DNA of 64,000 nucleotides from a virus (Duplodnaviria; Heunggongvirae; Uroviricota; Caudoviricetes): the IMG/VR virus record IMGVR_UViG_2718218305_000006; one strand, given 5' to 3'. The notes below the pieces were generated by a model, which was not told the origin of the DNA, searched no databases, and was given only the letters and a program-made list of their open reading frames with translations. Both the position numbers and the translations under genes were made by a program. This document shows positions 34,489-36,032 of the stretch, one piece after another. Position 1 is the first letter of the stretch; the number at the start of each line of letters is the position of its first letter.

Positions 34489-34576
34489 CTCAATCTGTTA
34501 TCCGGGGCTATATTCCTCACGCGCCAGCAAAATCTGGCGTCGGGATTAGCACCCCGGATGTTTACGGAGCGATATG

Positions 34577-34597
34577 AGACGCGCCCGCGTCTTTTTT
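34577..34597 (+). terminator. Intrinsic terminator downstream of Q (candidate tR')
   Basis: agacgc-gccc-gcgtct hairpin followed by TTTTTT. Confidence 0.55.
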
Positions 34598-34761
34598 CAT
34601 ATCGTTTGCACAGTCACATTCGCGATTTATGGCGGGCTGTGTGGGGGAGCCGAAAGGCTCGCCGGTTTCCGTACCCGGTAGTGCTAACCCCGCACAGTTC
34701 GCCACCACGATGATTAGCACCTGACGGTGGCGATAATGTCCAAATGTACGGAGTTATCGTT

Positions 34762-35319
34762 ATGACCACTCAGATTTCTGTCGAAACTCTTTCCCCAATT
34801 ACACACAACCAAATTCCCGTTATCACTACCGAGTTACTGGCACAGCTTTACTGTACCGAGATCAACAACATCAAAGTAAATTACACCCGTAATTCCGAGC
34901 GTTTTGTTGAGGGTAAACACTTTTTCAAGGTTGTTGGTGATGAGTTGAAAAATTTGCGGGTTACTTTAAGTAACTCACAAACGCCTGTTTCCCCCAAAAC
35001 CCGCTCCCTCATCCTCTGGACAGAACGAGGCGCAGCCCGTCACGCCAAAATGCTCGAAACCGATCAGGCGTGGGATGTGTTCGAAAAACTGGAAGACTGC
35101 TATTTCAGACAAAAGGATCCGTCAGCGCCAGCTTCATGCCAGAAAAGTTACGACACGCGAGTTCTCTGTTATCAGCGAGGCGGTGTCACTGTTTCCACAA
35201 TTCAGTTGCGGGATGATGATATTGTTATTTCCCTTGAGTCATGGCTGGAACTGGCGAGAGCCAATGGTTGGTTTGTTGTTCGCAGAGATAAACTGGTGGA
35301 AAGGCTGATGCAGCTTTAA
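34762..35319 (+). CDS. ORF6N-domain (antirepressor-like) protein
   Basis: N-terminal …ITTELLAQLYCTEINNIKVNYTRNSERFVEGKHFFKV… resembles ORF6N/KilA-N-type domains; sits between Q and the lysis genes. Confidence 0.55.
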   Translation: MTTQISVETLSPITHNQIPVITTELLAQLYCTEINNIKVNYTRNSERFVEGKHFFKVVGDELKNLRVTLSNSQTPVSPKTRSLILWTERGAARHAKMLETDQAWDVFEKLEDCYFRQKDPSAPASCQKSYDTRVLCYQRGGVTVSTIQLRDDDIVISLESWLELARANGWFVVRRDKLVERLMQL

Positions 35320-35477
35320 AAAAGTTCTTGCAATTTTAGCCATAAACTGCTTCAATTCCGGTACGCTTCGCAAAGCTGTATCGCGAGGCGAACCAAGCGC
35401 ATGAACTTTACCAGAACCCGCCATTGAGCGGGTTTTTTATTGCGGAATTAATTACGGACCGTTATTATTCTGCTCCC

Positions 35478-35553
35478 GGCCCTTTAGCTCAGTGGTGAGA
35501 GCGAGCGACGCATAATCGCCAGGTCGCTGGTTCGAATCCAGTACAACGCGCCA
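35478..35553 (+). tRNA. Degenerate tRNA-like gene (CAU anticodon, tRNA-Ile2/Met-like); acceptor stem does not pair
   Basis: D-arm TAGCTCAGTGGTGAGAGC, anticodon loop CGCATAA, T-arm GCTGG-TTCGAAT-CCAGT and 3' CCA are present, but 5' GGCCCTT is not complementary to 3' ACAACGC. Confidence 0.45.
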
Positions 35554-36032
35554 CACTTATTTTCCCTGGCTCGCTTTTGCGGGCCTTTTTTTTAAATGTC
35601 TCACAATTCAGGCGGTTGACTGTTGTCTGGTTTGCGGGGAGTTTGTTAAAAGAAACTGGCATGGTGAATCCCCCTGTGCGGAGGGGCAATCAGTGAGTAG
35701 GTATATGGGATAATCGCGGATTCAGGTGCTGGTACTGAATTCACCGGGAGGCACCCGGCACCATGCAAGAAAAAGAATGTGCATGCAAACATGCCCCTCT
35801 CCGGAGGGGCATTTTTTATGGGTAAAAAATGCCCGAATGGGTTCGGGCAATAGCATGAGATACTGATATTGTTGTGTTGTTATCGTGTGGATTTTAACCA
35901 GGGTTTATCAGGCTGCGCAACTGCGTGGCCTTTTTTCATTTCTTGGGCTGTAGTCCCCGTGTGTCATTCAGGCTTCCGGACTACAGCCCACTCCATATCT
36001 GATTTAATACACTATCCCGGCCGGGAGGAATA

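Follow-up and report, generated by a model that had tools for sequence, protein, structure and literature searches.

The region between positions 34489 and 36032 of a 64,000-nucleotide stretch of tailed-phage DNA (IMG/VR record IMGVR_UViG_2718218305_000006; "the window" below means this whole stretch) is very probably the promoter-proximal leader of the late operon in a non-Stx lambdoid prophage of a Shiga-toxin-type Escherichia coli lineage, put together from known parts as a mosaic of three cassettes. We read cassette A (34485-35437) as a predicted antirepressor cassette containing IsrK and C4-type RNAs, cassette B (35438-35594) as a tRNA segment, and cassette C (35597-36032) as a pair of small RNAs (sRNAs) together with the leader of an esterase gene. 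The position of the stx cassette lies between cassettes B and C, and the junction there is clean. An earlier note, made from the sequence alone, had assigned the region to the cargo position of Shiga-toxin phages and listed a tR'-like terminator, an ORF6N-type gene, a tRNA-like sequence, several strong hairpins and a NanS-p-like esterase. Its apparently unexplained hairpins and broken tRNA can all be accounted for by regulatory RNAs already described in prophages and by a single deletion. Although a specialist may find little surprise in this, our analysis adds the parentage of the pseudo-tRNA, the exact stx-empty junction, an allele-wide covariation of IsrK with C4, and a conserved hairpin in the esterase leader.

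The upstream neighbour of the region is a 188-aa gene ending at 34488, and its downstream neighbour is a 648-aa gene starting at 36033. Because the latter encodes an esterase of DUF1737-SASA-DUF6645 architecture followed by DUF1378 and then a phage 21-type holin (Pfam), and the former is Q-like, the region is placed as the Q-to-lysis leader of a lambdoid prophage. It contains eight terminator-like sites, compared with 1.9 +/- 1.5 in shuffled sequences. In a permissive Rfam scan, the elements described earlier as structured RNAs were identified as the families isrK, c4-a1b1, C4, STnc100 and AgvB, all of which scored above their gathering thresholds. Weak matches to Phe_leader, Trp_leader, GcvB, snoRNAs and NsiR1 fell below threshold and were disregarded as terminator-shaped or chance similarities.

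The evidence for cassette A begins with IsrK itself, which occupies 34521..34597 on the plus strand (Rfam isrK, RF01394; 74.4 bits against a gathering score of 50) and aligns to model positions 1-77 of 77. Its own terminator (34576-34597) consists of a stem at 34576-34593 followed by a T-run; this is the tR'-like terminator of the earlier note, and by position it is indeed tR'-like, being promoter-proximal and directly behind the Q-like gene. Overlapping IsrK on the same strand is a c4-a1b1 element (34508-34560; RF03163, 49.8 bits against 46.7). IsrK contains two boxes that would serve as decoys, b1 UUAGCAC at 34546-34552 and a1 UACGGAG at 34563-34569, and it has the position expected of an IsrK, behind a Q-type gene and ahead of an anrP-type antirepressor gene, with its own promoter and terminator.

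IsrK is followed on the plus strand by a C4-type antisense RNA at 34625..34709 (Rfam C4, RF01695; 78 bits against a gathering score of 45), which resembles that of P1 immI and is the equivalent of the Gifsy-1 STnc1160 or 'orf45' RNA. Its predicted fold (-49 kcal/mol) leaves both recognition loops exposed, namely a' UUUCCGUAC (34666-34674), which forms a hairpin loop, and b' AGUGCUAA (34680-34687), which is single-stranded. Next comes the antirepressor gene, 34762..35319 on the plus strand, encoding 185 aa from the start chosen by the Prokaryotic Genome Annotation Pipeline (PGAP); the mechanically called open reading frame (ORF) runs from 34744 to 35319. The ORF6N assignment made earlier stands, since the product matches Pfam ORF6N (3e-20), the PHROG anti-repressor group (3e-91) and Gifsy-1 STM2616/AnrP (56% identity, E = 3e-66). 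A folded terminator hairpin at 35413..35443 (+) closes the cassette.

A box search of the antirepressor leader (34714..34753, +) located two candidate C4 targets, b2 UUAGCAC at 34714-34720 and a2 GUACGGAG at 34746-34753, the second of which holds the Shine-Dalgarno sequence GGAG, 8 nt ahead of the ATG at 34762. Loop a' is complementary both to 34563-34569 in IsrK and to 34746-34753 in the leader, where the Shine-Dalgarno sequence lies, and loop b' is likewise complementary to 34546-34552 in IsrK and to 34714-34720 in the leader. We relied on explicit box searches and a cross-allele comparison in place of duplex prediction; RNAduplex-style pairing of C4 with IsrK and with the leader was rejected, as it returned implausibly long duplexes that were no better than those of shuffled sequences.

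For the cross-allele comparison we used 43 distinct upstream sequences, taken from Gifsy-1, phage PA28 and viral contigs that are related, with nine different a' loops and six different b' boxes in 13 combinations. In nearly every case the boxes of IsrK and of the leader matched the loops of their own C4 RNA over 6-9 bp. Such three-way covariation is strong comparative support for a C4 RNA that would mask the ribosome site of the antirepressor and for IsrK as its putative decoy. From this complementarity and from homology we infer the following regulatory logic. The promoter PisrK would produce a 77-nt IsrK RNA stopped at its own terminator, while transcripts that read through would carry the C4-type antisense RNA together with the ORF6N antirepressor gene. 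The exposed C4 loops would pair with the two leader boxes, one of them over the Shine-Dalgarno sequence, and leave the antirepressor untranslated. Free IsrK, bearing copies of both boxes, would titrate C4, turn on translation of the antirepressor and so could feed back on prophage induction. The scheme agrees with what experiments on IsrK, orf45, AnrP and AntQ of Gifsy-1 have shown.

Several points weigh against this scheme. Transcription, processing and regulation are all predicted from the sequence. In one allele (L125/L131) the a2 box matches its loop over only 4 bp, and in a few others over 6 bp. Moreover, the C4 RNA contains a 31-codon ORF (34629-34724, +) in the position of Gifsy-1 orf45 whose stop codon lies 38 nt before the antirepressor ATG, and the translational coupling step of Gifsy-1 may differ or not apply for this allele.

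The cassette behaves as a portable module. With another a-box allele, the series of promoter, IsrK, C4 and antirepressor is found again in many Stx1 and Stx2 phages, where it lies ahead of Q within the nin region (in PA28 at L005 2960-3930). Separately, window positions 34428-35436 matched PP818812.1 15496-16529, recorded as 'Actinobacillus phage vB_Apl-pPE4', with 95.6% identity over 1 kb; an Actinobacillus host is unexpected for an enterobacterial prophage module, and the record may reflect horizontal transfer, an E. coli-derived phage or a contaminant. As for its wider meaning, the comparison shows that many specificity alleles circulate in enterobacterial prophages and predicts which prophages can cross-activate each other's antirepressors.

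Cassette A opens with a sigma-70-type promoter, TTGACT-18-TATATT (34485..34514, +), which we call PisrK. A consensus scan found no other promoter-like site in 34300-36200, and hence no second one between Q and the esterase gene; the site ends 7 nt ahead of the Rfam start of IsrK at 34521, and its core, TTATCCGGGGCTATATTCC, is also present in Gifsy-1 and in the nin-region copy of PA28. The gene just upstream (33922..34488, +) belongs to the DUF1133 family (Pfam, 9e-103), with a borderline match to Phage_antitermQ (26.3 bits against a cutoff of 26) and a match to the PHROG group 'anti-termination protein Q-like' (phrog_753, 3e-79). Its best PDB sequence matches were to phage 21 Q (6p18_P and 6jnx_P), weak at E ~0.04, and a RusA gene lies immediately upstream, as is usual for Q. 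Family membership and a place after ninG/rusA thus mark it as a predicted Q-type late antiterminator gene.

It is probable that PisrK is at the same time PR', the Q-responsive late promoter. The -35 element overlaps the stop codon of Q, which is the classical position of PR', and in Gifsy-1 the supply of IsrK in trans gave 8-fold more read-through transcript along with AntQ (PMC4825925), a result that fits antitermination at this terminator. The strongest competing explanation is that PisrK is only the cassette's own promoter, that the Q-responsive promoter is located elsewhere, and that the terminator at 34576-34597 is then no equivalent of tR'. Two observations lean that way and count against our assignment: the nin-region cassette of PA28, which precedes the Q gene of that phage, has the identical promoter core, and the same promoter lies behind unrelated Q families in the window and in Gifsy-1. 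Given the lack of a second promoter-like site and the overlap with the Q stop codon, we regard this competing explanation as a real possibility but the less likely of the two, and retain PisrK as the candidate PR'. Upon induction, RNA polymerase modified by Q would pass all four or five plus-strand terminators and enter the esterase and lysis genes.

The joint between cassettes A and B can be placed at about 35437/35438, where similarity to PP818812 stops (35436) and similarity to the Stx2 phage 933W begins (35438). From 35438 onwards the window is collinear with both 933W and the non-Stx phage phi367, and it is the alignment with 933W that confirms the Stx-phage cargo position proposed in the earlier note. 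Window positions 35522-35594 align to 933W L004 1841-1912, which comprises argO and the annotated 'terminator upstream of the stx genes', and window positions 35597-36085 align to 933W sequence beginning 42 nt after stx2B. Between these sequences, which abut in the window, 933W holds 1,332 bp (L004 1913-3244) with stx2A and stx2B. The empty stx site is therefore mapped by collinearity to 35594..35597. We also confirmed that no stx-like reading frame had been overlooked: apart from the ORF6N gene, no ORF longer than 66 aa exists between 34489 and 36032, and a tblastn search of the whole window with 933W Stx2A and Stx2B returned only noise (best E = 0.71).

An empty site could mean that the prophage once carried stx2AB and lost it through a precise deletion, as opposed to belonging to a lineage that never carried stx. 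On either side, collinearity with 933W extends to within 3 nt of the cassette, and the neighbouring tRNA array bears the clear mark of a deletion by recombination, so that the segment appears prone to deletion. However, no stx remnant is present, the upstream segment with the Q gene and the antirepressor cassette is unlike 933W, and phi367 has the same order of tRNA, terminator and STnc100 with a different filler of about 45 unrelated bases at the stx site. Owing to lambdoid mosaicism, segment-wise ancestry is uninformative, and insertion and deletion are indistinguishable from these data. On balance we consider loss of stx2AB from this prophage unlikely. Independently of its history, the precise empty site in the window provides a reference point for gain or loss of the toxin cassette.

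Beyond the empty site, on the plus strand at 35630..35823, lies an STnc100-family sRNA (RF02076; 143.7 bits against a gathering score of 47, model positions 1-206) that is related to PasD and has its own terminator at 35791-35812. In 933W a member of the family lies 3' of stx2B, and in phi367 one lies behind the tRNAs. Facing it on the minus strand at 35824..35885 is the anti-GcvB sRNA AgvB (RF02702; 96.5 bits against a gathering score of 56). Its sequence agrees with the family consensus at 62/62 positions and contains the CACAACA motif targeting GcvB-R1, and its terminator is at 35849-35830. A match to AsxR in the same place (43 bits, below the gathering score of 63) corresponds to the conserved 3' part common to AsxR and AgvB. 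Prophages of O157 strains are known to carry convergent sRNA pairs at a 'moron' site downstream of PR'; the pair of Stx2 phages consists of AsxR and EcOnc27, located 3' of stx2B, and AgvB from Sp10 and Sp17 sponges GcvB and aids growth in the rectal mucus of cattle (Tree et al. 2014, PMC4104026). STnc100 in the window has the position of EcOnc27, which is convergent to AsxR in that study, and both STnc100 and its relative PasD are reported to adjoin the esterase gene (bioRxiv 10.64898/2026.05.13.724894). STnc100 and AgvB form such a convergent pair, in which AgvB would by homology act on the GcvB RNA of the host.

Past AgvB, the terminator scan detected a conserved hairpin, GGCTGCGCAACTGCGTGGCC, followed by a T-run (35910..35936, +; hairpin 35910-35931), in which the columns TGCGCAA are invariant among 32 related loci. 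Read on the minus strand, this terminator supplies TTGCGC, with 18 nt to a TAAAAT just upstream of the AgvB start, and may double as the AgvB promoter. PGAP has annotated a partial 'hypothetical protein' pseudogene antisense to STnc100 in identical genomes (L001 4250-4393, equivalent to window 35649-35792, minus strand), which is probably spurious.

The last element before the esterase gene is a hairpin in its 5' leader (35944..35990, +), recovered by an inverted repeat search. The earlier note had described it as a perfect 12-bp repeat with a 21-nt spacer; the spacer and the perfect pairing are correct, although the stem extends to 13 bp, with arms at 35944-35956 and 35978-35990, about 45 nt upstream of the esterase start. 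The surrounding 106 nt have a fold z-score of -3.1, and the Rfam scan found no family covering the hairpin. We compared the upstream regions of 80 esterase homologues, which reduced to 36 distinct sequences; when these were folded one by one, 32 of the 36 were predicted to form a long stem-loop at this place in spite of a differing distal stem. Eighteen distinct hairpin variants were then tested for covariation on a trimmed alignment with an explicit structure. Among them 90.3% of cells were paired, compared with 31-43% when the partners were slid. Three pairs had changed on both sides and seven varied on one side only, and all of the roughly 30 single-sided changes that kept a standard pair were G-U wobbles. 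As such wobbles would be mismatches on the other strand, they point to a hairpin in the plus-strand RNA. The distal stem appears as TAGTCC/GGACTA, CGGTTC/GGACCG or TTTTTC with GGAGG, whereas CUUCCGGA at the junction of the loop with the 3' arm is invariant.

One result speaks against a conserved hairpin: on an uncurated MAFFT alignment, RNAalifold gave a weak consensus (-5.6 kcal/mol) that missed it. In that alignment MAFFT had put the 5' arm out of register in one subgroup. RNAalifold also proposed an anti-Shine-Dalgarno pairing of a pyrimidine-rich loop with GGGAGG, which we rejected, as it is not kept in the window-type allele, where three of six columns are gapped or G-G. The repeat might instead be an element of the DNA, such as a protein-binding palindrome or a recombination site, or a product of chance. 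It is a perfect, palindrome-like repeat in the window, CCGGA at the start of its 3' arm is invariant in all variants and could mark a binding site, and it has neither a U-tract nor an Rfam family. We nevertheless judge this improbable, since the stem is kept in 18 variants with different distal sequences, three of its pairs have changed on both sides, slid controls pair at only 31-43%, and the G-U wobbles would turn into A-C mismatches if the opposite strand or a DNA cruciform were the structured form. What the plus-strand RNA hairpin might do is a more tentative matter: it is conceivable that nanS-p genes of lambdoid phages, both Stx and non-Stx, have in it a cis-acting RNA element that had gone unrecognised, which might govern processing or stability, or act as a switch in translation, and in this way set the esterase output of the late transcript. 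Stabilisation or processing of the late mRNA and tuning of esterase translation are guesses at this stage, but the hairpin offers a small, testable lead.

The esterase gene itself (36033..37979, +) encodes a predicted NanS-p-type sialate O-acetylesterase, as the earlier note had proposed, judged by its DUF1737-SASA-DUF6645 architecture and its place after the cargo site; 933W has a homologue, annotated there as a SASA family esterase, directly behind the stx2B-sRNA pair. Downstream of it, directly after the phage 21-type holin gene and at the position expected of an endolysin, lies a 186-aa ORF (38901-39461, +) that belongs to no Pfam family and matches only PHROG groups of unknown function (phrog_1085, 5e-112); it may be an insertion between holin and lysin. 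In related prophages the sRNAs PasA and PasC are encoded between esterase and holin (bioRxiv 10.64898/2026.05.13.724894). Within the corresponding part of the window (37980-38685) the Rfam scan, which extended to 38500, yielded nothing significant; no search with the Pas sequences was made.

The tRNA-like element of cassette B (35478..35553, +) is a chimera of two tRNA genes, as alignment with ileZ, argN and argO of phi367 revealed. It is identical to phi367 ileZ from position 1 to about position 50, through GGTCG, except for a T-to-G change at U33 (35510), and identical to argO from GAATCCAGTACAACGCGCCA onwards, which includes the T-loop, the 3' acceptor strand and CCA. The sequence CTGGTTC (35527-35533) is common to both parents, and the crossover occurred within those 7 nt. 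The 3' end of ileZ, the whole of argN and the 5' two-thirds of argO, about 170 nt in all, are lost. This fusion explains why the acceptor strands are unpaired while the CCA end and both flanks are intact: GGCCCTT faces ACAACGC, so that only 2/7 positions pair, and the 3' strand is complementary instead to GCGTTGT, the 5' strand of argO. The T-arms of ileZ and argO are nearly identical, and recombination between them would have deleted the intervening DNA and left one dead gene of a Stx-type tRNA array. The earlier note had suspected either decay or a recombination joint, and the element proves to be a non-functional ileZ/argO fusion. The note was also right about the non-pairing acceptor stem, but its intact anticodon arm holds only in part, as position 35510 is G in the window and T in the intact ileZ genes of phi367 and 933W.

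Without an acceptor stem and with U33 replaced by G, the molecule cannot be a tRNA. Consistently, ARAGORN reported no tRNA in the whole window or in locus L002 but recovered 3/3 in both phi367 and 933W as positive controls, and the Rfam tRNA match covered only model positions 7-64 of 71 with 37.3 bits, compared with 68-72 bits for intact ileZ and argO. The fold z-score was -0.97, no better than for shuffled sequence, whereas intact ileZ scored -4.03. When 5,426 complete E. coli genomes were searched with 76 nt of sequence across the joint, 143 of them matched at least 80% of the query; inspected matches include serotypes O157:H7, O121, O111 and O145, in which PGAP labels the element 'tRNA-Met', whereas intact arrays carry the labels tRNA-Ile and two tRNA-Arg. 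That call is 71 nt long (equivalent to 35483-35553) and starts 5 nt inside the 5' acceptor strand. RefSeq annotation thus names as tRNA-Met a chimera that is unable to fold as a tRNA. A search of a limited body of literature for ileZ, argN and argO found nothing, and the chimera may have been described before.

The idea implied by PGAP annotation of identical genomes, that the element is a working tRNA-Met or tRNA-Ile2, is hardly tenable, for even though the element carries no pseudogene flag in several genomes, the allele is identical across many serotypes, and conservation extends to D-arm, T-arm, CAU anticodon, 3' CCA, tRNA promoter and terminator, such a role cannot be reconciled with a 3' acceptor strand taken from argO, with G at the universally conserved U33, or with the rejection by ARAGORN, a partial Rfam match at half the score of an intact gene, a shortened PGAP call and an unremarkable fold. 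The chimera is probably still transcribed. Upstream of it, on the plus strand at 35440..35468, is a promoter-like site (TTGCGG-17-TATTAT) homologous to the 933W tRNA promoter 'pT', which is annotated at L004 1583-1611 and falls within a segment (L004 1581-1684) that is 92% identical to window 35438-35541. Transcription from this conserved promoter would end at the terminator at 35568..35593 (+), found by the terminator scan and homologous to the 933W 'terminator upstream of the stx genes'.

The region is a new combination of known elements, and the entire prophage is a mosaic that is absent from the complete RefSeq E. coli genomes. For window positions 22000-46000, none of these genomes reached a coverage of at least 80%, the best one covering 79% at 94.5% identity in seven pieces. 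A 1.7-kb region was matched at an identity of at least 99.9% in three genomes, in one of which (E. coli F2_407_2_2, L001 4634-7646) the esterase gene is split by IS903B; the equivalent sequence in the window, from 36033 onwards, is intact.

Cassettes B and C find their closest counterpart in the Stx2 phages 933W and Sp5. The tRNA promoter, the 5' part of ileZ, the 3' part of argO, the terminator, STnc100, a convergent anti-sRNA, the second terminator, the leader hairpin and the esterase gene are collinear with them at 74-92% identity, and the order in 933W is argO, terminator, stx2AB, STnc100, AsxR on the minus strand, esterase. In contrast to these phages, the window has no stx2AB, its three tRNA genes ileZ, argN and argO have collapsed into one chimera, and it carries AgvB, an anti-GcvB sRNA, where they carry AsxR, an anti-FnrS sRNA. 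Furthermore, their Q and PR' region is replaced in the window by the DUF1133 Q-like gene and the IsrK-C4-antirepressor cassette. For the sRNA pair, the AgvB loci of the O157 Sakai prophages Sp10 and Sp17 (PMC4104026) are a further close match: they share the 62-nt consensus AgvB with CACAACA, the convergent STnc100-type sRNA and the moron site downstream of PR', and we noted no notable difference at the sRNA level, although the mosaic surrounding the pair in the window is identical to no complete genome in the collection.

For cassette A the comparison is with the antQ-isrK-orf45-anrP locus of Gifsy-1 from Salmonella. There, some transcripts continue beyond the IsrK terminator into orf45-anrP but are not translated until short IsrK, acting in trans, attaches to the orf45 region and translation starts; AntQ is in turn raised by AnrP (PMC4825925). 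The orf45 region, which yields a processed stable RNA, STnc1160, and whose resemblance to P4 CI/seqA has been noted, is coupled in translation to anrP by an overlap of the orf45 stop with the anrP start (Hershko-Shalev et al. 2016, PMC4825925). By our comparison, the C4 RNA of Rfam falls on this 'orf45 region'. The window shares with Gifsy-1 the order Q, isrK/c4-a1b1, C4, antirepressor and tRNA (in Gifsy-1, isrJ and then tRNA-Arg), the promoter core, the first hairpin of IsrK and an antirepressor that is 56% identical. The Q genes, on the other hand, are unrelated in sequence, DUF1133/Q21-like in the window and Q82-like in Gifsy-1; the boxes read UACGGAG (a) and UUAGCAC (b) in the window as against UCACCG and UUGGCGU; the orf45 equivalent of the window has 31 codons and no stop-start coupling; and isrJ is absent from the window. 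Since the complementarity is present, IsrK may activate the antirepressor in the window as well, with the effect in trans assumed by analogy to Gifsy-1 (PMC4825925).

At the level of recognition, the cassette also follows an older design. Its two loops are matched by an upstream and a downstream pair of boxes, and the downstream pair is located at a ribosome site. This is the arrangement of the immI locus (c4-icd-ant) of phages P1 and P7, in which one transcript holds both the target and the antisense RNA that is cut out of it, and the two c4 loops match upstream boxes (a1 b1) and downstream boxes (a2 b2), the latter over the ribosome site of the antirepressor operon. The P1 and P7 alleles differ in both loop and box sequence. 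In the window, the antirepressor is a 185-aa ORF6N protein and not P1 Ant1/2, no homologue of icd is present, and cassettes of this type reside in the late leader or nin region of lambdoid phages, not in a plasmid prophage. By bringing 13 combinations of loops and boxes under one scheme, the covariation links the experimentally studied IsrK system to the classical logic of P1 C4 immunity.

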